Under the pieces are notes generated by a model. It did not search any database. It was not told where the DNA came from and saw nothing but the letters and a program-made list of their open reading frames with translations. Positions 43,699 to 64,000 of a DNA stretch of 64,000 nucleotides are shown piece after piece (positions within the stretch are counted from its first letter, which is position 1; each line of letters starts with the position of its first letter). A program made the translations under genes and the position numbers. Origin of the DNA: a virus (Duplodnaviria > Caudoviricetes); the IMG/VR virus record IMGVR_UViG_3300028833_000058. One strand, 5' to 3'.

Positions 43699-43900
43699 TA
43701 TTTTTCTCCCTTGTAAAATTGATAGTTGTAATTATGTTATCACCTTTCCCTAGAATTGGCACTAATGAAGTTATTTGTTCGTTGTCTACAGTCTCATCAA
43801 AAGAAATTGTAGATAACTTTTCATCACCTTCAGAAATGTTTAATATCCATTTACCTTTTACCTTACAAAAATCGAAATTTACCATATGTGCTCCTTTCAA
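43664..43900 (-). CDS. Hypothetical protein
   Basis: Packed operon. Confidence 0.45.
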   Translation of the reverse strand: MKGAHMVNFDFCKVKGKWILNISEGDEKLSTISFDETVDNEQITSLVPILGKGDNIITTINFTREKNNERRIECRNTN

Positions 43901-44904
43901 ATCTCATTGGTATCGACTATTAAATTTGGGTTAAATTGTCTTTCATTAAACGGTTCGTTGTACTTAAAATAACCGCATGGATTTGTTATATATCTAATAT
44001 CTCTCTTTCCAAAAGTAAAGTCATTCCTACTATGTACATGCCCAGATGTAACAAGTTTAACATTTGGTAATTGTTCATCTACCCATTCCTCAAGGTCAGA
44101 TACAAAACTTGCGTTCATCAGCTTCTTTTTATATTTTTCAGATACACATTGTGGAGATAAACAGTGATGTGTCATGAGTATAATGTTAGCGTTCGGATTT
44201 ATAGTTATTATCTCATCGTGGCATCTCTTCACTTCTCTTTTAGCCTTTCTATGTAACTTCAAATAGTATCTAGGTGATAAAGGTTTTCTTTTAGATTCAT
44301 TACCCCATTGAAAATCATTTAATCTACTAATGGCTTCTGCCATAGTTTCTTCTCGTATTGTTTTCTTCGTTAATTTTGTAATAGGAGTATATTTACTCGG
44401 AAGTCCATATACAGAATACCATAAATCCCATGCTTTAAGTATATCGTTAAGTTCATCTAACGTTAAGTCACAATAGGTGTAATCGGTATAAAAAGTACTA
44501 CCGATTATAGCAGTATTTTCGTCAATCCACATCCAATCGTTTTCAAGATAATTCCAGAGTAAGTGAGTTTTTGGAAACTTTTCTTTTAGTTCTTGCTTCA
44601 ATTCTGAAAGTATTGGTTTACTTCCATCATCGTTTTCGAAATATTGTAAATGATTTCCGTCTATGAATATTACTTTTTGATTAGGAAAGAAGCTTTCGAA
44701 GAACTCTTTGTGGTCATCGATTCCAGCAGCAATGTCACCAGCTATCAATGTAATATCAACTGGTTCTTGGAAATCTTTACCAAAGTTTTTCCATAAGTCA
44801 GAAGTTTTATAAGTACCATCCCAATCTGGTCCGTTTATTCCTTTTGTATAATGTAAATCACTAATTAGACGTAATTTAGTCATTGACTTTTTCCTCATTG
44901 TCAA
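43897..44904 (-). CDS. Metallophosphoesterase
   Basis: ISDLH, AGDI, GNH, THH, SGHVH. Confidence 0.88.
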   Translation of the reverse strand: MTMRKKSMTKLRLISDLHYTKGINGPDWDGTYKTSDLWKNFGKDFQEPVDITLIAGDIAAGIDDHKEFFESFFPNQKVIFIDGNHLQYFENDDGSKPILSELKQELKEKFPKTHLLWNYLENDWMWIDENTAIIGSTFYTDYTYCDLTLDELNDILKAWDLWYSVYGLPSKYTPITKLTKKTIREETMAEAISRLNDFQWGNESKRKPLSPRYYLKLHRKAKREVKRCHDEIITINPNANIILMTHHCLSPQCVSEKYKKKLMNASFVSDLEEWVDEQLPNVKLVTSGHVHSRNDFTFGKRDIRYITNPCGYFKYNEPFNERQFNPNLIVDTNEI

Positions 44905-46120
44905 TGATGTTTAACATATTTTTATATTTAACATTATCTAAATATCTATCGTAATTAGGAGTTTCTTTAATACCTTCGAAGACAGCAAAATATGTCAAAG
45001 GATAATTTTCTTTAACCCAATTAGCGAAGACTTGTTTAGCTAATTTTTCTGAACCTTGTTCTGTTAAAATCTCTTTATATTTATCTTCTCCAATCTTACC
45101 ATATTTCATTAATATATTTTTATAGGTGATTAGAGTTTTTTGTATTTTCTCAATTTTTTCGTTTAATTCTGGAAAAACTTGTAAGGCATCGTCAATAGTT
45201 CCGTTACGTATACCATCTAAAATTTTCTCATCTGTGGTTTCAAGCATATTGCGATAACCTTTTAGTCTGATATAATCTTCACACTTAATTTTTACACGAT
45301 TAAAGTTATCATCGACAATGACTACACCTTCATCTTTATCACCTTTATAAGTATTGCACAATTTTATCACATCATCTAAAGTATGTATATCAAAATACTT
45401 AACTGTATTAAATTTTTTAATCCCTGGTATTATTGCTTTAGCTATGTTAAGTGGATACTCATTGTAACTGTAAATGTTTCTACAACCTAAATAAATCAAA
45501 TCTGTTTTTGGATTATCTACTAATATACGTATCTTAGGTGAAATCAACTCAAACATATAAGTATAGTCTGGAGCAAATTCACTTAATGACACTTTGTTTT
45601 TAGATAAGCAATAGTTTATTAAATCTTGAATGGTATTACAATCGTTCGTTTCTTTTTCTTTGTATTTAGACGGAAGTTGAGATATAAGTTTATAGCTTAA
45701 ATTTGTTTCCCAACCGTTATTCGTAATCCAATGCCAATCGTCATTGTAATAGAATAACTTTATTAGTATTCCATCTACTTTTTGTTCAACTAAAGCTGAA
45801 TTCCAATCGATTTCTGGACAGAAGTCTTGACCTTGATTACCAAACTTTGTAAAAGGTGCTACTACCATACACGGATTCTTTGGGTCTTTTAAGGAAACGA
45901 CACAACCTCTGCATAATCTTACGTAAGGGTCGTTGAAATCACTGAATATACCGCTGTAAGAAAACATGTATAATTCTGGATATCTTAGTGTACCATCTTC
46001 ATTTTTCCATGGACATTGTTTTATTGTAATGAATCTTGGTTCAGCTTCTAAAAACTCTTTCCAATTTTCATTTTCTTTTATCAGTATCAAAAGTGGTCCA
46101 TACAAAGGCATATAACTCAT
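44876..46120 (-). CDS. T4 Rnl1-like RNA ligase
   Basis: CRG...PFTKFGN, KVDG (motif I), FELISP, EGVVI, RVKIKCEDY. Confidence 0.85.
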   Translation of the reverse strand: MSYMPLYGPLLILIKENENWKEFLEAEPRFITIKQCPWKNEDGTLRYPELYMFSYSGIFSDFNDPYVRLCRGCVVSLKDPKNPCMVVAPFTKFGNQGQDFCPEIDWNSALVEQKVDGILIKLFYYNDDWHWITNNGWETNLSYKLISQLPSKYKEKETNDCNTIQDLINYCLSKNKVSLSEFAPDYTYMFELISPKIRILVDNPKTDLIYLGCRNIYSYNEYPLNIAKAIIPGIKKFNTVKYFDIHTLDDVIKLCNTYKGDKDEGVVIVDDNFNRVKIKCEDYIRLKGYRNMLETTDEKILDGIRNGTIDDALQVFPELNEKIEKIQKTLITYKNILMKYGKIGEDKYKEILTEQGSEKLAKQVFANWVKENYPLTYFAVFEGIKETPNYDRYLDNVKYKNMLNIIDNEEKVND

Positions 46121-46626
46121 TTAATTTCTCCAAAATCTTTATGTGAAACAATCATGTCTTCAAATTCAAGTAACTTTGTCTCTTTTATTCTGCTATACAT
46201 GTTCTTTATGACATCTTCTGGGACAAATCTACCACCATTTTCTCCACGTTTAATGTTGTTTCTTAAACAATCTTCCAAAAGCATATCGGAGAAATCTACA
46301 ATAGTAAAGTTAATTGTTGGGTTTATACCATTCATAATTCTATATTCTTTTAGAATTGATTTTCTGGATATAAAAGTAGCATCAATTACAGTTATCTTAT
46401 TGTTTTCTAATGATTTTTTCAATCTTTCGTGAACTATCTTCCATATTTTACATTCGAAAGTATTTCCCCACTCTTCTTTCTTTGACTTAAATTCATCCCT
46501 TATGTCATCTGGACAAATTACACACGTGTTAGAATCAGAAAAATGTTTAGCCACAAATGTACTTTTACCACAACCAGGTATTCCATGTGTTAAAACTAAA
46601 TGTCTTTTTTCATCATTAAATGTCAT
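46117..46626 (-). CDS. Polynucleotide kinase (AAA_33/Pnk kinase domain)
   Basis: GIPGCGKST, PDDIR, VIDATF, RFVPEDVI. Confidence 0.85.
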   Translation of the reverse strand: MTFNDEKRHLVLTHGIPGCGKSTFVAKHFSDSNTCVICPDDIRDEFKSKKEEWGNTFECKIWKIVHERLKKSLENNKITVIDATFISRKSILKEYRIMNGINPTINFTIVDFSDMLLEDCLRNNIKRGENGGRFVPEDVIKNMYSRIKETKLLEFEDMIVSHKDFGEIK

Positions 46627-51949: not shown

Positions 51950-52103
51950 ATCTTTTTCCTTTATGGTTAATGGGTTCAGAATGGTTACTGAACATGTCTT
52001 TTACAATTCATCTAACAAGTTAGATGACAGAAATAAATTTACATCTATTTCTGTCATATTATAGAACTTATTTTATTTTATCCACAAAGAAAATTTATTA
52101 GTT

Positions 52104-52775
52104 TTAAAATTTCATCTTTCGACCTTTTTTCCAGCCTTGAGCTACAAATTGGTCTAAAAATTCTTTTTTTATACTTTTATTTTGTTTTAATTCGTCATTG
52201 TATACCCAACAATGACCATAGTTTGAATTTAAATTCCCTTTTTGACGAATTGAATTTTTTATAGCTATTTTCTTCTTTGTTTCTTCTGTTAAATGTTTTC
52301 CTTTCATTGGGTTTTCATGTGTTCTATAGTATTCTTTAAGTCCGTTTGATATTCTTTCTATGTATTCGGAATATTCTTTTTGTGTCATTGATGTCCAAAA
52401 TTTCTTATTTCCAATGATACATGGGTGATTTTTTCCATATTCAATCCAGTTGTTTTTCGCTTTTATAGATTGGATTTCATGATTGTTACAACAATAATCC
52501 CATCCACCTTCTCCACCAACTTTTATGTTATATGTATCAACTCTTTTTATAAATTCTTCATCGACAAGTTCTTTTTCTTTTTGATTCATTTCTTCTTCAC
52601 TCTTACATTCAAATAAAATTTCTTTTTTAAAATTGTTTAATCCATACTTTTTGAATGCTTCAAAAAGTATTTTTCCAGAACCCATGTATTCATCATTTAT
52701 CTTATCAGTTTTATGTTTTCCAATGTAAATTTTATTGTTTAAAACGTTTGTTATTTTATATATTAAAAAGTACAT
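52104..52775 (-). mobile_element. GIY-YIG (Seg-like) homing endonuclease with NUMOD3, at the end of tRNA operon 1
   Basis: IYKITN...KIYIGKH...YMGSG; MKGKHLTEETKKKI; start revised to ATG 52775 (SD AAGGAG). Confidence 0.88.
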
Positions 52776-52823
52776 AACTGTCTCCTTATGTACTAGAACT
52801 TTTTTGTACACAAATTTTTGAAA

Positions 52824-52898
52824 TGGCACAGGATGGTTAGAATCGAACTACCATCTTTCGGGTTGGAGCCGAATATTTTACCATTAAACTAATCCTGC
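52824..52898 (-). tRNA. tRNA-Trp(CCA)
   Basis: Cloverleaf, TTCGG-CTCCAAC-CCGAA, CCA end. Confidence 0.9.
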
Positions 52899-52903
52899 AT
52901 CAA

Positions 52904-52981
52904 TGGGGTGGTCGGTGAGGATTTGAACCCACATTCACTAGAACCACAATCTAGGGCTTTAACCAATTAAGCTACGACCAC
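52904..52981 (-). tRNA. tRNA-His(GTG)
   Basis: CTAGA-TTGTGGT-TCTAG, CCA end. Confidence 0.92.
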
Positions 52982-53026
52982 AAGAATATACCACATTACT
53001 GATATATGCTTCTAGTCGCAAAAAAA

Positions 53027-53100
53027 TGGCAGAGGTTGACTGACTCGAACAATCATCTTTGGTTTTGGAGACCAGTGTTCTACCTTTGAACTAAACCTCC
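53027..53100 (-). tRNA. tRNA-Trp(CCA), second divergent copy
   Basis: TGGT-CTCCAAA-ACCA, CCA end. Confidence 0.88.
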
Positions 53101-53102
53101 GT

Positions 53103-53177
53103 TGGAGCGACTCATGAGAATTGAACTCATATCTCTAGTTTGGAAGACTAGCATAATAGCCATTATACGAGAATCGC
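53103..53177 (-). tRNA. tRNA-Gly(TCC)
   Basis: CTAGT-CTTCCAA-ACTAG. Confidence 0.92.
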
Positions 53178-53179
53178 AT

Positions 53180-53253
53180 TGGAGAACCGCACAGGAGTCT
53201 AACCTGCCTAATTCGGGTTGCAGCCGAACACATAAACGCTCTGTCAACGGTCC
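53180..53253 (-). tRNA. tRNA-Cys(GCA)
   Basis: TTCGG-CTGCAAC-CCGAA, U discriminator. Confidence 0.88.
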
Positions 53254-53255
53254 AT

Positions 53256-53333
53256 TGGTGGCAATAACTTGAATCGAACAAGTAACTTCATCCTTATGAG
53301 AGATGCGTTCTAACCAAATTGAACTATATTGCC
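53256..53333 (-). tRNA. tRNA-Met(CAT), probably elongator
   Basis: CATCT-CTCATAA-GGATG; operon leader contains an internal ATG. Confidence 0.85.
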
Positions 53334-53336
53334 ATT

Positions 53337-53412
53337 TGGTGAAGATGGTGAGAATCGAACTCACACTCCCCTGATTAAAAGTCAGGTGCTTTACCGATTA
53401 AGCTACATCTTC
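53337..53412 (-). tRNA. tRNA-Lys(TTT)
   Basis: CCTGA-CTTTTAA-TCAGG. Confidence 0.93.
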
Positions 53413-53414
53413 AA

Positions 53415-53490
53415 TGGTGGATACCCCAAGAATCGAACTCGGTCCTTCTGTTCTTCAGACAGACGTACGCACCAGCTATACCAGATATCC
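53415..53490 (-). tRNA. tRNA-Phe(GAA)
   Basis: TCTGT-CTGAAGA-ACAGA. Confidence 0.9.
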
Positions 53491-53492
53491 AT

Positions 53493-53571
53493 TGGTGGAG
53501 AATGTGAGTTTTGAACTCACCTGAATTTCTCGGTGCAAACGAGATGACCACCCCAAGCAGTCCCATTCCCC
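53493..53571 (-). tRNA. tRNA-Ala(TGC)
   Basis: TCTCG-TTTGCAC-CGAGA; G3:U70 pair. Confidence 0.9.
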
Positions 53572-53601
53572 ACGAAATTTATAATATATACCTAAAAATA
53601 A

Positions 53602-53637
53602 GAAAAACCCCCGAAACTTTTTATTTTTTCGGAGGTT
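53602..53637 (-). terminator. Attenuator terminator upstream of tRNA operon 1
   Basis: AACCTCCGAAA-loop-TTTCGGGGGTT followed by TTTCTT. Confidence 0.8.
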
Positions 53638-53676
53638 GTACAATTTTTTACTTAGAGCCAAGAAATAAAGTTTTAG

Positions 53677-53754
53677 TTAATAGTCGACACCTCCGTCAGT
53701 TTTACCTGCGAATCCAAACATGTGCCAACATTTCTTAACTAATCTATTCATCAT
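53677..53754 (-). CDS. Leader peptide 1, MMNRLVKKCWHMFGFAGKTDGGVDY
   Basis: 25 aa ORF with SD AAGGAG; its codons match the downstream Ala/Phe/Lys/Met/Cys/Gly/Trp/His tRNAs. Confidence 0.85.
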   Translation of the reverse strand: MMNRLVKKCWHMFGFAGKTDGGVDY

Positions 53755-53787
53755 ATTAAATAGAACTCCTTTTTCTTTACTTCTTCT

Positions 53788-53816
53788 CTTATATCAAACT
53801 TTTTTCATAAAGTCAA
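53788..53816 (-). promoter_or_regulatory. Sigma70-like promoter upstream of leader 1
   Basis: TTGACT-17-TATAAG; a GTTCTA motif also lies at 53766-53761. Confidence 0.5.
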
Positions 53817-53836
53817 GTATTTTTTTTTAAGATTTT

Positions 53837-53964
53837 TGTCAAAGAGAATTTTTCAAACAGATTTTTGCAGCAGGACTTGAACCTGCATAGCTTTTCAGCT
53901 GTTGTTTTTTGAGAACAATGTGTATACCATTTCACGATGCAACTGTTTGACCGCTTCTTTGACA
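53837..53964 (-). ncRNA. Y-RNA-like (YrlA-type) RNA with tRNA-Leu(CAA)-like domain
   Basis: Terminal stem GTCAAAG-AAGCGG-TCAAACAG / CTGTTTGA-AAAATTCT-CTTTGAC enclosing D arm, CT-CAA-AA loop, long variable arm and GGTTCAAGTCC T arm; downstream of TROVE. Confidence 0.75.
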
Positions 53965-54067
53965 TAATAACTAAATGAAAAACTTTACGTATTTTTCTTG
54001 AGTACTTCTCAACAACGGTTAGTCAACATTGGAGAGGGGGTATGAAGCCCTAGAAGTAATTAGTTTG

Positions 54068-54188
54068 TGGTAAAGAGTATAAATAGAACAGGTTTATTGC
54101 AGTAGGACTTGAACCTACAATCCTTTGATTAAAAATCAAATGTTTTATCCACTTAAACGATGCAACTGTTCCAACCGCTTCTTTACCA
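54068..54188 (-). ncRNA. Y-RNA-like (YrlA-type) RNA with tRNA-Lys(TTT)-like domain
   Basis: Same AAGCGG/CTCT stem motif; TTTGA-TTTTTAA-TCAAA arm; GTAGG-TTCAAGT-CCTAC. Confidence 0.75.
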
Positions 54189-54199
54189 AAATTTATGCT

Positions 54200-54273
54200 C
54201 GAAGAGAATATTTAGAAATTGTGTATTTAGTCAACAACCCTTAGACGATGTAACAATTTCAACCGCTTCTTCG
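54200..54273 (-). ncRNA. Short Y-RNA-like RNA (no tRNA domain)
   Basis: CGAAG-AAGCGG-TTGAAATTG-TTACATCG...CAATTTC...TTCTCTTCG. Confidence 0.65.
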
Positions 54274-54282
54274 CTCTAATAA

Positions 54283-54597
54283 TTATTCACACAAATCAGA
54301 GTTTGTACATGAGTTGTATGGCTTACGACTATATGAAACTTCTTCATAAGTTTTTGGCTCATAAACTGTAGTATAAGTAACATCTTTGTAAATTACTTCT
54401 ACTGGTTTAGAAATAGTGTAACTTGTTGAACAAGTGTTACATTCATTGTTGTAAGAACGATATGTGTTGTAAGAAGGTTTAGTGTAGTTTACAACAGGTT
54501 TTTGTTCTTCAACTTTTGGAGTAACAATTACTTCTTCTGTTTCAGCACAAGTACAAGCACTTAATAAAATAGAGCATAACATTAAAACTTTTTTCAT
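54283..54597 (-). CDS. Small putative lipoprotein
   Basis: MKK + hydrophobic stretch + LSAC lipobox. Confidence 0.7.
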   Translation of the reverse strand: MKKVLMLCSILLSACTCAETEEVIVTPKVEEQKPVVNYTKPSYNTYRSYNNECNTCSTSYTISKPVEVIYKDVTYTTVYEPKTYEEVSYSRKPYNSCTNSDLCE

Positions 54598-54629
54598 GTC
54601 AATTACCTTTCGAACGTTGTTGATAAGTT

Positions 54630-54721
54630 AGTGAGGATTAGAGTATCATAAAGATTTGTTATTTCTAAAGCAGATTACATGTCTGGACTCGATGTAAATC
54701 TTTAACCGCTTAATCCTCACT
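54630..54721 (-). ncRNA. Y-RNA-like RNA immediately after the TROVE stop
   Basis: AGTGAGGATT-AAGCGG-TTAAAGAT-TTACATCG...ATCTTTA...ACTCT-AATCCTCACT. Confidence 0.65.
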
Positions 54722-54724
54722 TTC

Positions 54725-56353
54725 TTAGTCATTTACCGATGTCTTTATTTTAATAGAACTCTTCTTTTCTACTTTTTCATCTGTAATATTATCCATTCTA
54801 TCCCAAATGTCAATTAAAGTTTTAGCATAAATGGATTCTTTACCAGTCCAACCAGTTAGAATACTTGTTCTGTATTCATTTTCTGGCATTACATTGTTGT
54901 CATAGCCAGCTGTTTGAATAGAAAAGATATTAACTTTTGCATTAACCTTTCTTCTATATTCTTGAACAAGCTTTAAGACATCAATGAATTTTGAATTGTT
55001 GTATAAATAATCACGATAATGATGTTCATTTAATCCATACAATCCACCATGACCAGCTTGCATATCAGAGTAGATGAAAATGTTATCGTAATGTATCTTT
55101 TTCTTTATAGCTTCGTCAAAGAATAACCATATACCATTTTCAGTACTAGCACCGATGTTGTGTGAATGTCTACATTGAATTCTATCTAATTGAGACAGTA
55201 CACCATCTCTTTTGTTGACTGATTCGATTTCTAACCTATCTCCAAAGATTCCAACATACCCTTCATCAGAATTAATAGCTGTCATAACTGAAGATAAGTT
55301 ATCAATTTCAGCAACTTTAGTAGAACCATATTCAGTAGTTAATGCACCCCATGCTGAACCAGAGTTATCCGACAAGCAGATGGTCTTACCCTTTAACTTA
55401 GGGAAATTGTCCATTGCTCTATCTATACATCTGTTCAAGCTTTCTACAATAGCAGATTCACCCTTAACACGTGGATTAGAAGTTTGAATAGCCTTTAATG
55501 CAGACCAATATCTAAATGGAAATTGCTTACCCTTTTCGACACCGTTTTCAAGCATTTCAAGAACTTGCTTTCTGACATCTTCATCTTCAATCTCAGTAAA
55601 AATACCACGTAAGTTTCTTAAAAGAGCCATATGTGGGACATAAGTTGCTTGTAAAATTTCTGTCCAAGTTTTACCAGCACTTCTTAACTTTTCCCAAGTA
55701 GATTCTTCTTCTGTAACTTCAATAGTACCAGACTTCATAAGTTCATCAATGTCTTCAGAGTGAGCATGACAAATACGAACTAAGTCGATGATTTTAGCAC
55801 TTGTCTTGTACTTAGCCAATTGATATTTTTTAGTTACAGATAATTTGTTAGCCCATGCTCTTTTTAAGATAGATGGTAATTTACTTTTGGAGCCATTGAA
55901 GAACATCCACAATTCGAACTGATTCCAAATGTCAGTAGGAATGTTGATAACTTCTTCAATGCAACTACGCATGAACACCTTGTTTTCTTCATTAAAAGCT
56001 TTTCTACCATCATACATTACAGCTCTAACCATAATCAAAGCTGGGTTTAAACGCATATTGTATTCATATCTTAACTTTTTAGCAAGATTTAATACACCTT
56101 CGAAATCATAAGCTAAAGCATTGTCACAAGCTTCAACAAAAGTTGCTGTTGTACCAGATAACTCTTTGTTGTTAGCACCATCGTTTTTGTAATATGACTT
56201 TTCACCAAAAATAGATGACGCAGCAACCATTTCTAGCTCTAGCAATGGGTTAGTTTTATAGGAAATACCATTCATGAAGTTTACAACTTGCTCATCTTTG
56301 TGCTTGTTGTAATCTGCTTCAGATTTCTTTGCATAACCTGAGAATTTAGACAT
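54725..56353 (-). CDS. Ro60/Rsr TROVE-domain RNA-binding protein with C-terminal vWA domain
   Basis: DLVRICH, TWE, PHMALLRNLR, KQFPFRYWSA, vWA DNSGS...SDMQ, GW. Confidence 0.9.
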   Translation of the reverse strand: MSKFSGYAKKSEADYNKHKDEQVVNFMNGISYKTNPLLELEMVAASSIFGEKSYYKNDGANNKELSGTTATFVEACDNALAYDFEGVLNLAKKLRYEYNMRLNPALIMVRAVMYDGRKAFNEENKVFMRSCIEEVINIPTDIWNQFELWMFFNGSKSKLPSILKRAWANKLSVTKKYQLAKYKTSAKIIDLVRICHAHSEDIDELMKSGTIEVTEEESTWEKLRSAGKTWTEILQATYVPHMALLRNLRGIFTEIEDEDVRKQVLEMLENGVEKGKQFPFRYWSALKAIQTSNPRVKGESAIVESLNRCIDRAMDNFPKLKGKTICLSDNSGSAWGALTTEYGSTKVAEIDNLSSVMTAINSDEGYVGIFGDRLEIESVNKRDGVLSQLDRIQCRHSHNIGASTENGIWLFFDEAIKKKIHYDNIFIYSDMQAGHGGLYGLNEHHYRDYLYNNSKFIDVLKLVQEYRRKVNAKVNIFSIQTAGYDNNVMPENEYRTSILTGWTGKESIYAKTLIDIWDRMDNITDEKVEKKSSIKIKTSVND

Positions 56354-56387
56354 TTTAGTTCCTTCCTTTCTTTCTCGATTTGTTGTG

Positions 56388-56421
56388 ATTATATTTTCAA
56401 TTTTTGTTAAAGTAAAGTCAA
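56388..56421 (-). promoter_or_regulatory. Sigma70-like promoter of the TROVE/Y-RNA unit
   Basis: TTGACTTTACT...: TTTACT-17-TATAAT. Confidence 0.6.
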
Positions 56422-56448
56422 TTGTTGTAATTTATACACTTTAGCTGA

Positions 56449-56634
56449 TTAGTTAAGCACTAACTTGTTGAATTTAATGTTTAAATAATCAGCTATAGCT
56501 TTTTTCCAATTGAACTTCTTTACTTTCTTTTTCTTATTCGGCACTACTTTATGTTGAAATAGTGCATTGTGGTAAAGATTGAATAACAAACATCTCTCTT
56601 CACCTGTTTTAGTTCGTTTTGTTTTCTTTTTCAT
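56449..56634 (-). CDS. ArfA-like alternative ribosome rescue factor candidate
   Basis: Basic 61 aa; LYHNALFQHKVVPNKKK resembles ArfA LLHDPLFRQRVEKNKKG; long hairpin over the 3' end. Confidence 0.55.
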   Translation of the reverse strand: MKKKTKRTKTGEERCLLFNLYHNALFQHKVVPNKKKKVKKFNWKKAIADYLNIKFNKLVLN

Positions 56635-56826
56635 TTTATTTCTCCAAATTATTTTTAATATATTTTTTAAAATACTGACGAACTTTTTTATTGTAATCTT
56701 TAATCATAGCTTGAACAGCATTTTTGTCTCCACTACGTTTATAATCACTTTTATATTCTTCGTCAGGTTTTACATTTATGTTTTTATATCCTTTCATTTT
56801 ATTTCTCCGATAAAAAAGGGAGATTG

Positions 56827-57210
56827 TTATCTCCCGTTGTTTTTGTTACACGCTACGAAACTGCTGTACATTTCCTTGTTAATATTTATGTCCATAGTTT
56901 CAGCTCGTTCCCTCGCTTTTCTTTCATAATATTCAAATCTATCTTTTGTTAATGGATAAAAATACAAGGCTCTCGATTCCATTATTACTAACTTCTTCAA
57001 TTCCTTCTCTGATTTTTCAGCATATTCTTTACATAACATTCTAAAAAGACCGTCTTCTGTTTCTTCATCTTTTATAACGTGTCCATAATGTTTAGATAAC
57101 TTATAAGCTTGTAAATCAATGTTAGCTTGTGTTTCTATCGCTCTTTGTATGTCACCAGACAATTTGCTAAAATTAGACCCCTTTTCATCAGAAAAATGTC
57201 TATAGTCCAT
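56827..57210 (-). CDS. Hypothetical protein
   Basis: ORF track; GTTCTA motif upstream. Confidence 0.55.
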   Translation of the reverse strand: MDYRHFSDEKGSNFSKLSGDIQRAIETQANIDLQAYKLSKHYGHVIKDEETEDGLFRMLCKEYAEKSEKELKKLVIMESRALYFYPLTKDRFEYYERKARERAETMDININKEMYSSFVACNKNNGR

Positions 57211-57381
57211 TGTAATAATTCCCTATATATATGTGAAGTGTAATGTATAGAACTAAAAAATCGTTTGTCCATTTTAGAATAATGACCTAGGAAATTCTAA
57301 AACTCTATGTTAATTCATACGACAGGTTTTAACATTACTAAGATGTCATGGAACTACTGGGACAATTGTACAAAAAAGTGT

Positions 57382-57410
57382 TTGACATTTTGTCCAATCT
57401 AGTGTATAAA
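57382..57410 (+). promoter_or_regulatory. Near-consensus sigma70 promoter
   Basis: TTGACA-17-TATAAA, 4 nt before the ATG. Confidence 0.65.
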
Positions 57411-57414
57411 CTTT

Positions 57415-57723
57415 ATGTGTCAAACAACTGAACTGGACAAAGCAATGGATGTTTTACTTCGTATACTCATAATCTTTATGTTGTTATATATGGTCTATAT
57501 AACCATATCATCTATTTGGGAAGCTGGTGGTCGTACCATACTCGGAAGTATAATGTTTGTGGCCATGATGTGGGCCTTTTGTGCACTTTTAAATACAACT
57601 ATCGTACAAGCTCTTATAGCTTGTTGTTTTCTAGTTGTAATTGTCATGTTGGTACTTCAAGCTATAGCTTGTTTTCTTTCATCAATGATTAGTTATATCA
57701 ATAAGTTATTTAATCATGAATGA
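57415..57723 (+). CDS. Small membrane protein (3 TM)
   Basis: Hydrophobic; own promoter; opposite orientation to the island. Confidence 0.6.
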   Translation: MCQTTELDKAMDVLLRILIIFMLLYMVYITISSIWEAGGRTILGSIMFVAMMWAFCALLNTTIVQALIACCFLVVIVMLVLQAIACFLSSMISYINKLFNHE

Positions 57724-58084
57724 AAGAATCAATAAAATCTTCTAAACTAATTTTTTCACCAGTCTCTTTGTTTGTTGCAATCTGTTTGTCAAGACGTATC
57801 ACAAACGAATCGTTAGAAAGAACATATGCACTAAGTTGTCTAAATCCTCTATCTTTAAAGAATTGTAAGATATCTAAGTAGATTTTTGTGTCTTTTGATG
57901 GTTTAATTTTGTCCATATCGACTTTACCATTTCTCCAATCGTTATACATATATTTCGGTAACCATCCAACATATTTTATGCACCGTGTACAACGAATCCC
58001 AAATATTTCAGGATGCGTCTTAGAAATAATATGTTCAAAGTGCGTAGACCCACATATAGGACATATGAATTTATCATTCTTCAT
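57710..58084 (-). CDS. Zn-ribbon protein (start revised to 58084)
   Basis: CPICG...CTRC; SD GAGG. Confidence 0.6.
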   Translation of the reverse strand: MKNDKFICPICGSTHFEHIISKTHPEIFGIRCTRCIKYVGWLPKYMYNDWRNGKVDMDKIKPSKDTKIYLDILQFFKDRGFRQLSAYVLSNDSFVIRLDKQIATNKETGEKISLEDFIDSFIHD

Positions 58085-58105
58085 GAAACTTCCTCTCAGA
58101 TTTAG

Positions 58106-58179
58106 TGGTTTCGGGGGGTCGATTCGGACGACCATTAACGCAGTCAAAGTGCGCTATCCTACCATTAGACGACCCCGAA
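58106..58179 (-). tRNA. tRNA-Gln(TTG)
   Basis: GCGCA-CTTTGAC-TGCGT, CCA end; variant T loop TCCGAAT. Confidence 0.88.
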
Positions 58180-58186
58180 ATAAGAC

Positions 58187-58314
58187 GATTGGAGGAGGAG
58201 TCGAACCTCACACAATTAAGAATTACCGTTCTTAAAATTTTCCTCTACTTCCCGTCTTCTTAATCAAACTTTCTTTCGGTAAAAATACTTATTTGACATA
58301 GTAGAGCTCCAACC
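58187..58314 (-). ncRNA. Unclassified tRNA-like RNA, copy A
   Basis: GGTTGGAG/CTCCAATC stem, GAGG-TTCGACT-CCTC arm; covaries with copy B. Confidence 0.65.
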
Positions 58315-58349
58315 ATAAAAAAACAATAACTTTTTAATTGAATAGTTCA

Positions 58350-58640
58350 TCACTACCTTGTTCAGTTTGTGGTCTGGAACATATCTTCATCTTCAACATT
58401 ACTTGGCTAGATGGAATCCACTTGTTCTCTACACATTTATTACGAAAGTGCCAGAATCGAACTGGGAACTAAGATTACAACACCCATAGAAGTTATCTCA
58501 GTTTCTATCTATGCTCAATAGGGTCCAACACTATCTCACCTTCATAAATTTAGCTCGGTATTGTCATCAGCATTATCTGTTAAGATTTCACTGAATTCGG
58601 ATTCATTCAAATATACATTTCTGTATAAGTGTTCAGTTTT
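58350..58640 (-). mobile_element. Group I intron-like core joined to a tRNA-Gln 5' half (58644-58679)
   Basis: P3 AATCC/GGATT, P4 AATTCAGTGAA...AATACCGAGC, P7 AGAGAACA/ATATGTTCC, P8 CATCT/AGATG. Confidence 0.6.
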
Positions 58641-58686
58641 ACCCAAAATCTCATGTCCTACCATTAGACGACCCCGAAATAATCAC

Positions 58687-58822
58687 GGTTGGAGGTGGAG
58701 TCGAACCACACACCACTAACATCTGCAGATATTAGAATTTCCCTCTACTTGCCGTTATCTTAATCAAACTTTCACTTCTGCAGAAGTACTCATTTGACAT
58801 ATGAAACATTAGAGCTCCAACC
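58687..58822 (-). ncRNA. Unclassified tRNA-like RNA, copy B
   Basis: GGTTGGAG/CTCCAACC, GTGG-TTCGACT-CCAC. Confidence 0.65.
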
Positions 58823-58967
58823 ATAAAAAACAATAACTTTTTGATTGAATAGTTCATCACTACCAAACCTAAACGGAGAAGTTATTGCAGAAACTCCCTA
58901 AACGTAGGATAGGATTGATAACATTACTAAGATGCCATAGCAATAGTCCTATCACTTCAAACTAAAA

Positions 58968-59060
58968 TGGCACCCCGTAAACTGATTCGAACAGCATTCC
59001 CGTACTAATTGACTGGAGCTATAGACATTCAACTAGCGGTCACCATGACTACAACGAGGT
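58968..59060 (-). ncRNA. Atypical tRNA-like RNA with CCA end and 16-nt central loop
   Basis: ACCTCGT/ACGGGGT-G-CCA; TTCGAAT T loop. Confidence 0.55.
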
Positions 59061-59069
59061 ATTAAATGT

Positions 59070-59189
59070 TCTTCTTGACAAGGCTTGAACTTGTACCTAA
59101 ACCTTAGAGGGAATTGTGCTACCGCCGTTAGGGTTTAGTAAAAAGAGCTATAGTATTTACTAAATCTATCCGTTTACACTACAAGAAGA
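59070..59189 (-). ncRNA. Atypical tRNA-like RNA with a hairpin inserted in the D loop
   Basis: CTTCTTG/CAAGAAG acceptor, ACAAG-TTCAAGC-CTTGT T arm, TTTAGTAAA/TTTACTAAA insert. Confidence 0.55.
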
Positions 59190-59194
59190 TAATA

Positions 59195-59329
59195 CTATAA
59201 ATTATTAATAAACCAATTGTGAATGTTCTGCCAAAATCCAGACTTTATAGATATCAATGTACCATATATTGCTATCAACGAAACAATTATTGAAAGTATA
59301 GATTCTACAATTTCTAATTTTTCTTTCAT
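59195..59329 (-). CDS. 44-aa single-TM peptide (MKEKLEIVESILSIIVSLIAIYG...)
   Basis: Below the ORF-track cutoff; GGAG upstream. Confidence 0.45.
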   Translation of the reverse strand: MKEKLEIVESILSIIVSLIAIYGTLISIKSGFWQNIHNWFINNL

Positions 59330-59474
59330 TTAACATATTCTCCAATTTTGTATCTTTCTAGGCTACTACTGCGCAACCCTACGACTGCTGCACCATCGTT
59401 TTACGTTCTTCGTTTACTCAGCTTGTATCGTCAATGAAAGTTCCTGAGCTGACGTTTTCCAACCTATTACAACT

Positions 59475-59555
59475 TGGCGGGGCCACATGATTTTCACACG
59501 TTATCTTGGACCTACATCCTAAGCAATCTGTTCTAGAACCAGATTTAACGCCCCA
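59475..59555 (-). ncRNA. Atypical tRNA-like RNA ending in CCA
   Basis: TGGGGC/GCCCCG-CCA with three arms but non-canonical loops. Confidence 0.45.
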
Positions 59556-59782
59556 TAAAAAAATCGGCAATCGGTTTTTACCCTTTATCCACTCGCTGTT
59601 CGAACTCTTTAGCGTTGGAGGGTCAGGTTACTGTTTTCTACAGCACATAGTTATTTAGGCAATTACCTCTAAATACTAACAACACGCCATCAACCTGTCT
59701 GATTATATAAGCATCAATTTAATACTTATCCGATGTACATTCATATTAAATTGTACTAGTCTATATAATCACGAATTAGAAT

Positions 59783-59868
59783 TGGTGCAAGGTGATAGAG
59801 TCGCACTACCCGAGTCCGAAGACAAGTGATTTACAGTCACTCCCGCTACTCCTACGGTATAACCTTGC
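59783..59868 (-). tRNA. tRNA-Tyr(GTA)
   Basis: AGTGA-CTGTAAA-TCACT, long variable arm. Confidence 0.88.
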
Positions 59869-60025
59869 ATAAAAGTAATCCGATAATATCTAAATCTACA
59901 CTTACTTGGTACTAGCATGTAAAACATACTGTCCAAAGCCCCCACTTTCAATTTCTAAAGAAATAGCCGCTCGGATTAACACGGTGGGATGGATTCTACG
60001 AAAAAAGTACGTAAAATCAATGGTT

Positions 60026-60099
60026 TGGTCGAGAACGTCCGATTCGAACGGCAATCCCTCGCCCCAAACGAGGAGTGTTACCCTTACACCACGTTCTCG
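60026..60099 (-). tRNA. tRNA-Pro(TGG)
   Basis: CCTCG-TTTGGGG-CGAGG. Confidence 0.9.
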
Positions 60100-60109
60100 A
60101 TGAATAAAA

Positions 60110-60186
60110 TGGTGGAACAGGAGTGACTTGAACACCCAACCTATCCGTTATGAGCGGAGAGCTCTGACCAATTGAGCTACTGTTCC
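60110..60186 (-). tRNA. tRNA(CAT), probably Ile2 (lysidine)
   Basis: CTCATAA loop; the operon leader contains an ATA codon. Confidence 0.75.
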
Positions 60187-60187
60187 A

Positions 60188-60706
60188 TTAAGCTTTTTTA
60201 TAAGATTTATTCTTCAATATAAAGATTATTCTGCTATGTGCAACACCAAATTTTCTAGCTAATCCACGAGTTCCGAATTCTTTATGTTTTGGAATATAAT
60301 GTTCTCTTATCCATTTAGCTTGTTCATTTGTAAGTTTTGCACCATGGTTATCTTCACCACCATGATATGTTATTAAATTATGCTTTACTGCGTGAATAGT
60401 ATTTTCTTGATTAGTACACCACTCTAAGTTATCCCAACGATTGTTTAATTTGTTTCCATCAATGTGATTTACTTGTGGTTTGTTTTCTGGATTTGGTACA
60501 AAAGCTTCAGCAACCAACCTGTGAATTTTTACACATTTACATCCACCTTTTCTACCATTTGGATATAAAGCGTATACATAATAGCCTGTCTTTCCAATTT
60601 GTTGCTTTACGTTTTTGTTAGACCTACCCTTTAGATTGCCTAGATTACTTATAAAATAACCTTGTATATCAATTTCTTTCCAAATTTCTTCTTCGATGTT
60701 TTCCAT
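60188..60706 (-). mobile_element. NUMOD4-HNH homing endonuclease inserted between tRNAs
   Basis: EIWKEI..YFISNLG; HRLVAEAF...VNHIDGNKLNN...NLEW. Confidence 0.92.
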
Positions 60707-60794
60707 TTACAAATTCCTATATTGTTATGACTAATTTATAGAACTATATAAATGGTGCCTATTTTTCATCGAACACAAAATTTTTATAAAAATT

Positions 60795-60866
60795 TGATTC
60801 CAACGAGATTCGAACTCGTATTACCACCGTGAAAGGGTGATGACCTAACCGTTAGTCGATGGAATC
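60795..60866 (-). tRNA. tRNA-Glu(TTC), CCA not encoded
   Basis: TCACC-CTTTCAC-GGTGG. Confidence 0.88.
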
Positions 60867-60945
60867 ATAATAATCAACGCTTTTTGATTGCATGGTAAAA
60901 ACCACCAAACCTTATTATGGAGAAGCATTGATGAAACTCCTTGAT

Positions 60946-61022
60946 TGGCGGGAGTGACCAGTCTTGAACTGGCGACCTCCACAGTGACAGTGTGGCGTTC
61001 TGACCAACTGAACTACACCCCC
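60946..61022 (-). tRNA. tRNA-Asp(GTC)
   Basis: CCACA-CTGTCAC-TGTGG. Confidence 0.92.
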
Positions 61023-61024
61023 AT

Positions 61025-61112
61025 TGGTGGATTTGATGAGACTTGAACTCATATGGTCACAATGACCGAGGGATTTTAAGTCCCTTGCGTATACCAGTTT
61101 CGCCACAAATCC
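61025..61112 (-). tRNA. tRNA-Leu(TAA)
   Basis: AGGGA-CTTAAAA-TCCCT, long variable arm. Confidence 0.92.
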
Positions 61113-61116
61113 AAAT

Positions 61117-61191
61117 TGGCTGGGATGGAGAATTTCGAAATCTCGACCTACGGTTTAACAGACCGCCGCTCTGCCTCTGAGCTACACCCCA
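61117..61191 (-). tRNA. tRNA-Asn(GTT)
   Basis: GCGGT-CTGTTAA-ACCGT. Confidence 0.9.
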
Positions 61192-61197
61192 ATATAA

Positions 61198-61272
61198 TGG
61201 TGCCACATGAGAATTTTGCAATCCCGACCTACCGCTTACAAGGCGGTTGCTCTACTTCTGAGCTAATGTGGC
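61198..61272 (-). tRNA. tRNA-Thr(TGT)
   Basis: ACCGC-CTTGTAA-GCGGT. Confidence 0.9.
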
Positions 61273-61276
61273 ATTT

Positions 61277-61410
61277 TGGCGGGAGTGACTATATCTGTGT
61301 CATTATAAAGTCATTTAATTAACATTTTGTATCACTGAGTGTCCTACACTTTTATATATCTAGAATCAGATAGGCAAAACTCTAACTACTTTGTATTTAA
61401 CAGAACTCCC
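61277..61410 (-). ncRNA. 134-nt RNA with Asp-like acceptor stem and CCA end
   Basis: GGGAGT/ACTCCC-G-CCA; last 13 nt identical to tRNA-Asp. Confidence 0.4.
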
Positions 61411-61417
61411 ATAATAA

Positions 61418-61494
61418 TGGCAGACCGTACAGGACTCAAACCTGTGACACCAAGCTTAGAAGGCTTGTGCTCTATTCTACTGAGCTAACGGTCT
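61418..61494 (-). tRNA. tRNA-Arg(TCT)
   Basis: CAAGC-CTTCTAA-GCTTG. Confidence 0.92.
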
Positions 61495-61820
61495 ATAAGA
61501 GTTATATAGGATAGGTAAACCAACGTATTTACCTCTTGCGTTATGGAGCAATGATTTGTTCCAATGTAATCTGGGCTCATCTATTCTTACGAGATAGACC
61601 ATCCTATATGTTCTATGGTTTGGGATGTGGAAGCGAATCCATCTTCCTTTTTGTACCCTAGGCCTGACCGATATACACTTTACAATGTATAACATCCCAA
61701 GACTTGTAGTTTTCATAACGGTCCATTTAGAGATTCTACTGAGCACTGTCCGTTATGGGAATCTGCTTTGTTAAGGAGCTCTAAATCTCTTAACCGCAGT
61801 TACTACAACCCTCTCAGCAG

Positions 61821-62186
61821 CTAATCTTTAATCTTCACGAGTTCATAAACATTAATTGGATATTTCCTTTGTTCACAATTTGCAATTTTATAAACTCTAT
61901 GTTTATCTATACCCAAAATATATTTTACGATTCTACCGATATCTTTACCAGCTTCAGCTTCTGGGTTATCAATTTTTCTTTTTACATGGTACTGATACAC
62001 ATAATCTAATGGTGTATAAGACCAATCTCTAAATTTACCTCCAACAATATCAGAAGTGGTAAATTGCTTTTTATAAGCCAAAGCTCCTTGAATCATACCA
62101 TTTATAAAAGTTGTCAATTCAGCTTGTTGCATGTAAGATAGTGATTCAAAAGCACTGGACTTTTGTATGTTAGAATTGATAATCAT
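61821..62186 (-). CDS. Hypothetical protein inside tRNA operon 2
   Basis: SD AAGGA before ATG 62186. Confidence 0.6.
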   Translation of the reverse strand: MIINSNIQKSSAFESLSYMQQAELTTFINGMIQGALAYKKQFTTSDIVGGKFRDWSYTPLDYVYQYHVKRKIDNPEAEAGKDIGRIVKYILGIDKHRVYKIANCEQRKYPINVYELVKIKD

Positions 62187-62280
62187 AGCTCTTTTCCTTT
62201 CATGTATGATTATAATGTTAAACAAGTTTATTAAATGAGAAACAAGTTATTTAACGACCCCTGTTTCGGTTTAAGTCGAT

Positions 62281-62373
62281 TGGCGGAGAGAGTAGGATTC
62301 GAACCCACGGTGGTATATTTCACCCACGGCTGATTTCAAGTCAGCTGCAATAGACCAACTCTGCCATCTCTCC
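62281..62373 (-). tRNA. tRNA-Ser(TGA)
   Basis: GCTGA-CTTGAAA-TCAGC, long variable arm. Confidence 0.93.
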
Positions 62374-62381
62374 ATGATATT

Positions 62382-62462
62382 TACAGATGGAGAGATTTGA
62401 ACTCTCACGCATTTCTGCACTGGTTCCTAAGACCAGAGTGTCTACCGTTCCACCACATCTGT
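62382..62462 (-). tRNA. tRNA-Leu(TAG), CCA not encoded
   Basis: CTGGT-CTTAGGA-ACCAG. Confidence 0.9.
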
Positions 62463-62469
62463 ATAAATT

Positions 62470-62546
62470 TGGTACAGCTGGATAGACTCGGACTATCGAC
62501 CCCTGCCTTATCAGAGCAGTGCTCTAACCAACTGAGCTACAGCTGT
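62470..62546 (-). tRNA. tRNA-Ile(GAT)
   Basis: CTGCT-CTGATAA-GGCAG. Confidence 0.9.
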
Positions 62547-62551
62547 ACAAA

Positions 62552-62628
62552 TGGTAGAGGTGAAGAGATTTGAACTCCTGACCCTCTCGGTGTAAACGAG
62601 ACGCTCTAACCAGCTGAGCTACACCTCT
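62552..62628 (-). tRNA. tRNA-Val(TAC)
   Basis: TCTCG-TTTACAC-CGAGA. Confidence 0.93.
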
Positions 62629-62665
62629 ACAAAAAGTATTTCCTATTCACAATGTCATTATAACT

Positions 62666-62700
62666 AAAATAAAAACTCGTCTTTTTATCTTTGACGAGTT
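62666..62700 (-). terminator. Attenuator terminator upstream of tRNA operon 2
   Basis: AACTCGTC-loop-GACGAGTT followed by TTTATTTT. Confidence 0.8.
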
Positions 62701-62750
62701 CCTATTTCTTTTAACTTTTTAAATGTTTTGATTAAGCAATAGCAAACTCG

Positions 62751-62813
62751 TCAGCCTTGTTCTCTAGGTTGATTATATAAATCTGAGTATGTTACTATCG
62801 TTTTAATCATCAT
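62751..62813 (-). CDS. Leader peptide 2, MMIKTIVTYSDLYNQPREQG
   Basis: 20 aa ORF; its codons match the 12 amino acids of the downstream tRNAs; antiterminator begins at the stop codon. Confidence 0.85.
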   Translation of the reverse strand: MMIKTIVTYSDLYNQPREQG

Positions 62814-62842
62814 ATTAATTAGAACCTCTTCATTGAAATTTT

Positions 62843-63127
62843 TTATATTGTACAGAATTTTTTCTTATTTGTAAAGTCTTTTTTTTCAATTTTCTTTACT
62901 TTTTTGTTAATATAGTTGATAACATCTTGAACTGTAATGAATTTTTTTGATACCTTGTCTGGTATTTCAATATCAAATTCACACTCTAAAGCCATTATAA
63001 TTTCGATTATATCCAAACTATCGGCTCCGAAATCGTCAACCAAGCTTTTAGATTTCTTGATTGCGGATTCTTTTATGTCCAAGTGTTCAGAAATGATACC
63101 TATTACTAATTTTTCAACACTCTTCAT
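62843..63127 (-). CDS. acpP: Acyl carrier protein
   Basis: DFGADSLDIIEIIMALECEFDIEIPD with the phosphopantetheine Ser. Confidence 0.9.
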   Translation of the reverse strand: MKSVEKLVIGIISEHLDIKESAIKKSKSLVDDFGADSLDIIEIIMALECEFDIEIPDKVSKKFITVQDVINYINKKVKKIEKKDFTNKKKFCTI

Positions 63128-63149
63128 TCTCTCACCTTGTGAAAATTAC

Positions 63150-63545
63150 CGATTCTTTAAGCACGTTGGGTATGCCGTCTGAATAACTGACTACTCCTTA
63201 CGTTATCATTCTCAGTTGTACGATAACAGCCCAATAGTCATATAGTTGACGTTTTGCACATAGTGGCATCTCGGTATTCCATTTGTCTTTACAGACATTC
63301 GTATATAAATTCGGCTGAAGGACTCCTGACTACCTCCAAGCAGTATATTAAGCGCATTATTCAGTCACATCCACATAAGTTAGCTACTCTTATGCTTTTA
63401 GGATGAGGAGATTGATTACTCCTAAACGGATACAGATATCAGCATTTCAACCTACGATTTGTCCGTTTCTTACGTCACTAAAGGTTGGCCAACCCTTGCT
63501 ATTTCAACCTTATGCTTCTTAATACCTGGCAACTATATAGTAAAC
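63150..63545 (-). ncRNA. Large structured ncRNA candidate (ROOL/GOLLD-like class)
   Basis: About 400 nt with no ORF; long-range helices ATATAGTTG/CAACTATAT and CTGAATAA/TTATTCAG plus many hairpins. Confidence 0.55.
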
Positions 63546-63613
63546 TTTTCAGTATTATTATATATCTCTTTATTAGCCATCAACTAATTATTTAGAGAAA
63601 GCCAAATTTATAT

Positions 63614-63691
63614 TGGTTGCAGGGAATGGATTCGAACCACTGACCTCTAGGTTATGAGCCTAGCAAGCTGACCTGACTGCTCTACCCTGCT
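63614..63691 (-). tRNA. tRNA-Met(CAT), initiator-like
   Basis: Unpaired 1:72, TAGAGCAG D arm, CTAGG-CTCATAA-CCTAG, AACCA end. Confidence 0.85.
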
Positions 63692-64000
63692 ATAAAACAA
63701 ACTTATGGGTTATTGATGTTCTATATTTGAACTATAAATAGGTGATAAAGCTATTTATTTAGGCACCTCCCCTAAAATTTTCAATATAATTGGCAGAGCG
63801 TTTAATGCGTTTTCAGGAGTTCTGCCAACAAATTTATATGTCATTTCTTTTAGGTCTACACCATTTTACCCCCTAGGCTGCTTAAGACGAATGACAAGAC
63901 TAGCAGTGTTATATCTATCCGTTTTAACAAAATAAGAATTTGGTGCCCTCTAGATATAACAGTATAGTTTGGGCGGACTATGGTTCTAATTGGAGCAGAT

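Follow-up and report, generated by a model that had tools for sequence, protein, structure and literature searches.

We describe two transfer RNA (tRNA) gene arrays in a 64,000-nucleotide stretch of viral DNA (Duplodnaviria; Caudoviricetes; IMG/VR record IMGVR_UViG_3300028833_000058; this whole stretch is called the window below). Each array is preceded by a short open reading frame (ORF) whose codons list the amino acids of the tRNAs encoded behind it. The match between leader and array is real and highly non-random. From the sequence and from folding models, we consider it likely that both leaders are ribosome-mediated transcription attenuators of the trp/ilv type, which would gate the tRNA genes as a demand sensor. 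Both leader-array units lie wholly on the minus strand, and their parts named below are all given on that strand.

Leader codons and array contents

Array 1 (53571..52824) comprises nine tRNAs in the ARAGORN prediction, Ala(tgc), Phe, Lys, Met, Cys, Gly(tcc), Trp, His, and Trp, all of which except Ala are confirmed by the Rfam tRNA model. Array 2 (62628..58106), identified with ARAGORN (12 tRNAs) and Rfam, reads Val, Ile(gat), Leu(tag), Ser(tga), Arg(tct), Thr, Asn, Leu(taa), Asp, Glu, a tRNA with a CAT anticodon, Pro, Tyr, and Gln. Thr(tgt) at 61272..61201 was added by Rfam (55.9 bits); Tyr(gta) at 59866..59788 is a degenerate candidate scoring 26.3 bits, under the gathering score of 29, at the site of tRNA-Tyr in relatives. 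The CAT tRNA occupies the place of Ile(tat) in relatives, from which it differs in sequence. Because relatives carry Ile(tat) at that place, we interpret it, by position alone, as probably a lysidine-type Ile2 tRNA. An HNH endonuclease ORF and other ORFs are interspersed in array 2 on the same strand. No terminator-like hairpin was found in the array 2 interior, and the array can therefore form one transcription unit despite these ORFs. The initial annotation had divided the 20 amino acids between two tRNA operons. The array contents agree with this division, but further tRNAs lie outside both units, namely tRNA-Met (63691..63614) and, just past the window end, Ser(gct) and Gly(gcc). None of these stands behind a leader, and the same holds for two tRNA-like elements (54167..54094 and 53944..53862).

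Leader 1 follows a promoter-like site that we read from the sequence (TTGACT, 17-nt spacer, TATAAG; 53788..53816). The corresponding site of leader 2 (TTTACA, 17-nt spacer, TACAAT; 62847..62875) is a sigma-70-like match at 10 of 12 positions and the best in 52-64 kb. An element of the CTTTACAAA type likewise precedes the leaders of relatives. As had been annotated, both units then begin with the same header. This 19-nt sequence is present in exactly two copies in 64 kb, with 0 expected from shuffles: an exact pattern match at 53748..53766 for leader 1 and a copy at 62807..62825 for leader 2, in which a purine-rich ribosome-binding stretch is followed by a conserved spacer and an ATGATG start. 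The short ORF annotated before each array is also found. Leader 1 has 25 codons and a TAA stop (53754..53677; core at 53736..53701), and leader 2 has 20 codons and a TGA stop (62813..62751; core at 62798..62760).

In the 12 residues of the leader 1 core KKCWHMFGFAGK, each of the 8 array 1 amino acids (Lys, Cys, Trp, His, Met, Phe, Gly, and Ala) occurs, and no other does. The 13 residues of the leader 2 core IVTYSDLYNQPRE include all 12 amino acids of array 2 (Ile, Val, Thr, Tyr, Ser, Asp, Leu, Asn, Gln, Pro, Arg, and Glu). Both compositions had been proposed in the initial annotation, and both withstand a partition test: 10 of 125,970 eight-amino-acid sets are realised by some stretch of leader 1, the array 1 set included (p = 7.9e-5), and 4 of 125,970 sets are realised in the test of leader 2 (p = 3.2e-5). 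Across six frames of 1.09 Mb of related phage DNA, no run other than the leader 1 core is made purely of array 1 amino acids and covers all 8 residues. Outside the cores, residues from the set of the other array make up 9/24 in leader 1 and 3/19 in leader 2. The correspondence extends to codons. Under strict wobble rules, array 1 anticodons can read 11 of the 12 leader 1 core codons, and array 2 anticodons can read 15 of the 16 codons at positions 4-19 of leader 2. TTA, AGA, and TCA in leader 2 match Leu(taa), Arg(tct), and Ser(tga), and the two Ile codons that occur there, ATT and ATA, correspond to Ile(gat) and the CAT/Ile2 tRNA.

Predicted leader folds and a model for attenuation

An intrinsic terminator lies just before the first tRNA of each array, as the initial annotation had noted. 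The leader 1 terminator (53636..53607) is followed by a T-rich tail to ~53594, and the leader 2 terminator (62701..62673; 5' arm 62700..62693, 3' arm 62681..62674) by a T-run; the first tRNAs start downstream, at 53571 and 62628, respectively. The two hairpins have predicted energies of -10.6 to -12.7 kcal/mol and are among four terminator-like sites on the minus strand between 52 and 63 kb.

Each leader can also form an antiterminator that engages the 5' arm of its terminator. Segment 2 of leader 1 (53673..53699) contains the motif CGGAGGT (53695..53689), located 3-4 codons ahead of the stop, which pairs with the terminator 5' arm at 53636..53630 (duplex energy -13.3 kcal/mol). Segment 2 of leader 2 (62737..62752) overlaps the stop codon, and an 8-nt strand within it (62752..62745, overlapping TGA) pairs with 62700..62693 (-15.5 kcal/mol). 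For either leader, 0/300 shuffles yielded a duplex as good, and the leader transcripts fold with z = -4.75 (leader 1) and -4.53 (leader 2) compared with shuffles. A protector strand, segment 1, is located within the core codons of leader 1 by folding (53706..53742). Its counterpart in leader 2 (62785..62800) pairs with segment 2 in the minimum-free-energy fold of the untranslated RNA. The 1:2 protector helix is thus predicted in both window leaders: in the naked RNA the core codons hold segment 2, and the terminator is predicted to form.

We then modelled the transcript before the terminator 3' arm is made, with the ribosome footprint masked and with 5' ends taken from the promoter-like sites. 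The antiterminator is predicted with the A site at codons 6 to 14/16 of leader 1 and at codons 1-15 of leader 2. Placing the ribosome at the last codons or the stop abolishes the antiterminator and gives the terminator, in the window leaders and in ten leaders from relatives; the 3' boundary of the antitermination range recurs in 10/10 of the latter. Equilibrium folding of the full leader 1 transcript with a masked ribosome does not discriminate between these states. With the 3' arm in place the terminator always prevails, and for leader 1 only the co-transcriptional intermediate discriminates. In these models the masked folds follow trp-type logic, with fast decoding leading to predicted termination and stalling to predicted read-through.

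In the mechanism that we propose, transcription would start at the sigma-70-like promoter and pass through the 20- or 25-codon leader. Prompt decoding of every codon would bring the ribosome to the last codons or the stop, where it covers segment 2; the terminator hairpin (3:4) would then form and halt the polymerase 35-45 nt ahead of the first tRNA gene. If any of the aminoacyl-tRNAs for the core were scarce, the ribosome would pause within the core and leave segment 2 free; its pairing with the terminator 5' arm (2:3) would precede synthesis of the 3' arm, and the polymerase would enter the array. The array would supply the tRNAs that read the core codons and so provide a demand sensor with negative feedback, in which the build-up of phage tRNAs ends the pause and attenuation returns. 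We infer leader translation, ribosome pausing, regulated read-through, and the trigger during infection.

The leaders share several features with known attenuators: a short ORF with a start codon and a ribosome-binding stretch, codons tied to the function of the controlled genes, an intrinsic terminator, and an antiterminator that uses the terminator 5' arm. They are set apart from ordinary attenuators of the trpL/hisL/ilvL type because the genes that they would regulate are tRNAs and not genes for amino acid biosynthesis, transport, or synthetases. Closest are the leaders of ilvGMEDA (Leu/Val/Ile codons) and thr (Thr/Ile), which likewise combine a multi-amino-acid leader with mutually exclusive helices and in which a stall at any control codon causes read-through. 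These enterobacterial operons, however, encode biosynthetic enzymes, and their leaders devote runs of 3 to 15 codons to two or three amino acids, whereas the phage leaders would control tRNAs and list 8 or 12 amino acids with 1-2 codons each. The three helices (1:2 protector, 2:3 antiterminator, and 3:4 terminator), the position of the sensing codons in segment 1, and the predicted termination of the untranslated window RNA resemble Escherichia coli trpL, which in contrast senses one amino acid and controls a biosynthetic operon; the phage protector helix, moreover, is not predicted in all relatives. The attenuator of the pheST leader (pheM) and the synthetase T-boxes also target the decoding machinery and take the availability of (charged) tRNA as their signal, but they control synthetase genes and respond to one tRNA species each, and T-boxes need no ribosome. 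The tRNA clusters of other large phages (T4, T5, phage G, and other jumbo phages) are similarly compact, with homing endonuclease genes interspersed and RNA repair or quality-control genes nearby, but leader-peptide control is not known to be described for them, nor did a full-text literature search return a description. That search, which did not cover all journals, found no leader-peptide control of tRNA genes in phages or elsewhere.

Leaders in relatives and in other phage clades

Relatives of the same clade were recovered by pattern and synteny searches, the leader 2 homologues through synteny; a degenerate pattern for the leader 2 core has no match in viral contigs. Pairs of leaders are present in the relatives G001 (L011:16716-16790 and L011:9423-9476), G002 (L012:16451-16528 and L012:13449-13511), G003 (L013:3437-3511 and L013:9916-9984, both on the minus strand), and L066 (L066:3696-3782 and L066:11903-11983, both on the minus strand), and two additional contigs hold leader 1 only. 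The 12-codon core of leader 1 encodes the same protein in 7/7 distinct sequences, and all four of its variable sites are synonymous third positions, while codons on either side of the core, and the spacer before the terminator, change freely. Its antiterminator is paired in 49/49 cells of the 7 sequences, compared with 29-51% in slid controls, and one terminator pair is kept by compensatory C-G to U-A changes in two sequences. Leader 2 is more variable than leader 1, with indels that stay in frame. In G002 and G003, changes in its antiterminator strand go together with changes in both terminator arms (5' and 3'), a three-way covariation that is the prediction of two mutually exclusive helices. 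Antiterminator duplexes are better than 99-100% of shuffles in 11/12 leaders and always lie at or near the stop codon; in the twelfth (leader 2 of G002), where the automated choice fell on the protector hairpin, the pairing was judged by eye. Comparison of leader 2 codons with array 2 content in the five closest relatives reveals agreement in ~3-4/5 genomes per variable tRNA, which is suggestive in a sample too small to be a test.

More distant loci were reached via a neighbouring gene for a TROVE protein, some of whose homologues are only ~50% identical. In one distant clade the tRNAs are split into three arrays, each with its own leader and with a layout of short ORF, antiterminator at the stop codon, and terminator (examples are L034:10276-10335, L034:14761-14850, and L034:15897-16004). 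The first leader, before Ser-Arg-Pro-Ile-Met-Leu, has a core made up only of Ile, Leu, Pro, Ser, and Arg, spelled with ATA, TTA, and AGA, and every core substitution among its nine variants stays inside the amino acid set of the array. The second is located before Glu-Asp-Met-Leu(tag); its core is of Glu/Asp/Leu type and includes CTT and CTA. The third precedes a 15-tRNA array and contains all 15 amino acids, its ATC/ATT and CGC codons matching Ile(gat) and Arg(acg). The variable columns of a 35-codon distant leader are distributed 1/2/10 over codon positions 1/2/3. At the locus L045, from a 386-kb contig, a leader before four Leu isoacceptors has TTA, TTG, CTC, and CTA, and a second leader matches an Asn-Tyr-Asp-Thr-Glu-Gly array; the L029 locus is another leader-array case. 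The initial annotation had recommended a search of related arrays for short ORFs whose codons follow the anticodons. Such ORFs with matching codons do occur in differently partitioned clades, but tracking is imperfect in leader 2 of the close relatives. As clades that partition their tRNAs differently carry leaders that match, the correspondence is, on this comparative evidence, a recurrent and selected design and not a peculiarity of the window.

We rejected the idea that the Gly codon tracks the Gly anticodon (in the window GGA goes with tcc, and in G001 GGC goes with gcc), since G003 pairs GGC with tcc. A header match in L001, a contig of a giant-virus metagenome-assembled genome, begins an ordinary long ORF without tRNAs and was treated as chance. 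Bacillus phage G has no comparable leader beside its tRNA genes.

The comparative data bear on two other explanations of the leaders. In principle, uncharged or intact tRNAs could recognise, through their anticodons, the row of leader codons that matches the array, in an RNA-only sensor similar to a T-box that would work without a ribosome. Models for T-boxes, including the covariance model, and for other riboswitches have no match at E <= 0.1 in positions 50000-64000 on both strands, and the codon list always sits in an intact ATG-to-stop frame behind a ribosome-binding-like stretch. The in-frame indels and third-position variation, and an antiterminator strand placed where a terminating ribosome would cover it, likewise speak against such a sensor, to which we assign hardly any probability. 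Alternatively, the arrays could be transcribed constitutively from their own promoters, the ORF-hairpin modules being separate small genes or the terminators of upstream genes and the codon match having some other cause. TATAAT-like strings do follow both window terminators, and G001, G002, G003, and L066 have a promoter-like element between the leader 2 terminator and array 2. Yet the window lacks the element of these relatives, and between the terminator and the first tRNA of either window unit no promoter-like site is predicted at a score of 9/12 or more. Own promoters would also leave unexplained the codon-anticodon match in four clades, the conserved antiterminator pairing at the stop codon, and the substitutions within the array sets. 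We regard this explanation as quite improbable.

Several observations nevertheless weigh against attenuation by leader translation. In the four relatives with a promoter-like element behind the leader 2 terminator, part of array 2 transcription may bypass the attenuator, which may then add to a basal level and not gate transcription completely. GGT and CCT are not readable by the UCC and UGG anticodons under strict wobble rules, and leader 2 has no CTN codon for the Leu(tag) of array 2. Among the relatives, leader 2 of G001 lacks an Arg codon although its array has Arg(tct), and leader 2 lacks Asp in G003 and Val in L066. Most amino acids have just 1-2 codons per leader where classical leaders use codon runs, and sensitivity to mild tRNA shortage may consequently be low. 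With respect to structure, the protector helix is not predicted in several relatives, and early out-of-set codons fall within the masked-folding antitermination range in most relatives. The modelled sensing range does not reach Pro, Arg, and Glu of leader 2 or the last Gly and Lys in the core of leader 1, which are too near the antiterminator strand in the folding model. The trp/his-type attenuation put forward in the initial annotation thus agrees with the layout, the codon match, the kept and co-varying alternative helices, and the other clades, but the modelled sensing range misses the last core codons.

Genome context, possible trigger, and implications

The source record spans 79 kb in IMG/VR, with a CheckV completeness of ~1/3, and the window is its reverse strand. 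It has a GC content of 31% and encodes a baseplate protein, a DNA polymerase, an anaerobic ribonucleotide reductase, homing endonucleases, and an RNA ligase. The closest relative that is nearly complete measures 227 kb, and the window is therefore part of an uncultured jumbo phage genome. A megablast search of the 10.4-kb region against cultured phages matched only homing-endonuclease and tRNA fragments and returned no relative.

Several features accompany the arrays. A conserved box of 25-26 nt (62639-62664, minus strand) is located after the terminator of leader 2 and ahead of the first array 2 tRNA; exact-pattern matches to it stand ahead of tRNA arrays in 8 IMG/VR contigs (L058-L065), and it could be a processing site or a promoter element. 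A conserved non-coding stretch of ~170 nt without an Rfam name, which may be a structured RNA, adjoins tRNA genes at L073 1-130 (the G000 contig start, past the window end) and at L011 ~9640-9800; in G001 it is placed between the conserved box and the first array 2 tRNA. The D-arm region of the first array 1 tRNA, Ala(tgc) (53493-53571, minus strand), is oversized, but the G3:U70 pair that marks alanine identity is retained; G001 has a canonical tRNA-Ala at the matching position. At the far end of array 2, positions 58106-58890 (minus strand) contain a tandem duplication of ~500 nt, each unit of which holds a structured stretch with a tRNA-like T-arm at its end and, after it, the 5' half of a tRNA-Gln. 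An intact tRNA-Gln (58179..58106) forms the downstream copy, and the upstream one (from ~58682) appears interrupted after the anticodon. The HNH_3 homing endonuclease gene of array 2 (60188-60706, minus strand) is inserted between tRNA-Glu and the CAT tRNA, and a GIY-YIG homing endonuclease gene (SegE-like, NUMOD3; 52104-52829, minus strand) directly follows array 1. Directly upstream of leader 2, an acyl carrier protein gene with a PP-binding domain (62843-63127, minus strand) contains the promoter-like site of that leader within its last codons.

The gene for the TROVE (Ro60-like) protein (54725-56353, minus strand) is located between arrays 1 and 2, and TROVE homologues adjoin tRNA arrays in 44 IMG/VR phages; among cultured phages, Bacillus phage G has the closest homologue (48% identity). 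Downstream of the gene we find the two tRNA-like elements (54094-54167 and 53862-53944), labelled Lys(ttt) and Leu(caa) by ARAGORN, and a 32-nt repeat in three copies. The locus, to which positions 54240-54285 also belong, resembles that of a phage Ro protein whose RNA partners are Y-RNA-like or tRNA-like. ARAGORN also reports suppressor-type tRNAs with the anticodon tta, which reads TAA, in the TROVE-carrying relatives L040, L044, and L051, a hint of stop-codon reassignment there; none was found in the window. About 7 kb from the tRNA arrays, three adjacent genes form a cassette of the RNA-repair type (43897-46626, minus strand). It comprises an AAA_33 P-loop kinase (46626..46117), a T4 RnlA-like RNA ligase (phrog_562; 46120..44876), and a calcineurin-like phosphoesterase (metallophosphoesterase; 44904..43897).

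These neighbours are relevant to the question of what would trigger the attenuators. The same mechanism could serve chiefly in counter-defence, as the initial annotation proposed, in that host anticodon nucleases or further defence systems that act on tRNAs would deplete host tRNAs, the leader ribosome would stall, and replacement tRNAs would be made from the phage arrays. As a circumstantial hint, the repair-type cassette of kinase, RNA ligase, and phosphoesterase suits a phage that faces RNA damage, the Ro60/TROVE gene with its tRNA-like RNAs sits between the arrays, and phage tRNAs are established to counter tRNA-targeting defences in other phages. On the other hand, known anticodon nucleases each cleave, to our knowledge, only a few tRNA species, whereas both leaders together list all 20 amino acids. 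The leader codons are moreover those read by the A/T-rich anticodon set of the phage, which fits a general matching of supply or a feedback at least equally well, and nothing in the sequence identifies the trigger. We therefore consider a role mainly in counter-defence rather unlikely. With every amino acid represented across the two leaders, a general sensor of supply and demand, or one for feedback, appears more probable than a response to any single nuclease.

tRNA genes are usually seen as controlled at their promoters, by growth rate and the stringent response, and phage tRNA arrays as passively expressed cargo. We know of no earlier case in which tRNA transcription is set by the decoding speed of the matching codons. 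If our reading is correct, this would be achieved here by a leader that the ribosome reads as an inventory. It would explain why large phages sort their tRNA genes into particular blocks, make the leader a readable sequence signature of the tRNAs that a phage treats as limiting, and provide a mechanistic tie between phage tRNA arrays and stress or defence that depletes tRNAs. Because the promoters look sigma-70-like, the system is amenable to small reporter constructs, and the leaders could serve synthetic biology as compact multi-input sensors. More tentatively, and with less than even confidence, we envisage that large phages in several unrelated clades maintain an autonomous tRNA economy under feedback control, in which blocks of tRNA genes are gated by a codon-by-codon test in the leader that extends to isoacceptor codons, and any shortage, be it due to mismatched codon usage, to starvation, or to a host defence that cleaves tRNAs, switches on exactly the matching block. 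tRNA genes would then form a new target class for ribosome-mediated attenuation, and attenuation of this kind would be a general principle by which phages take over translation.

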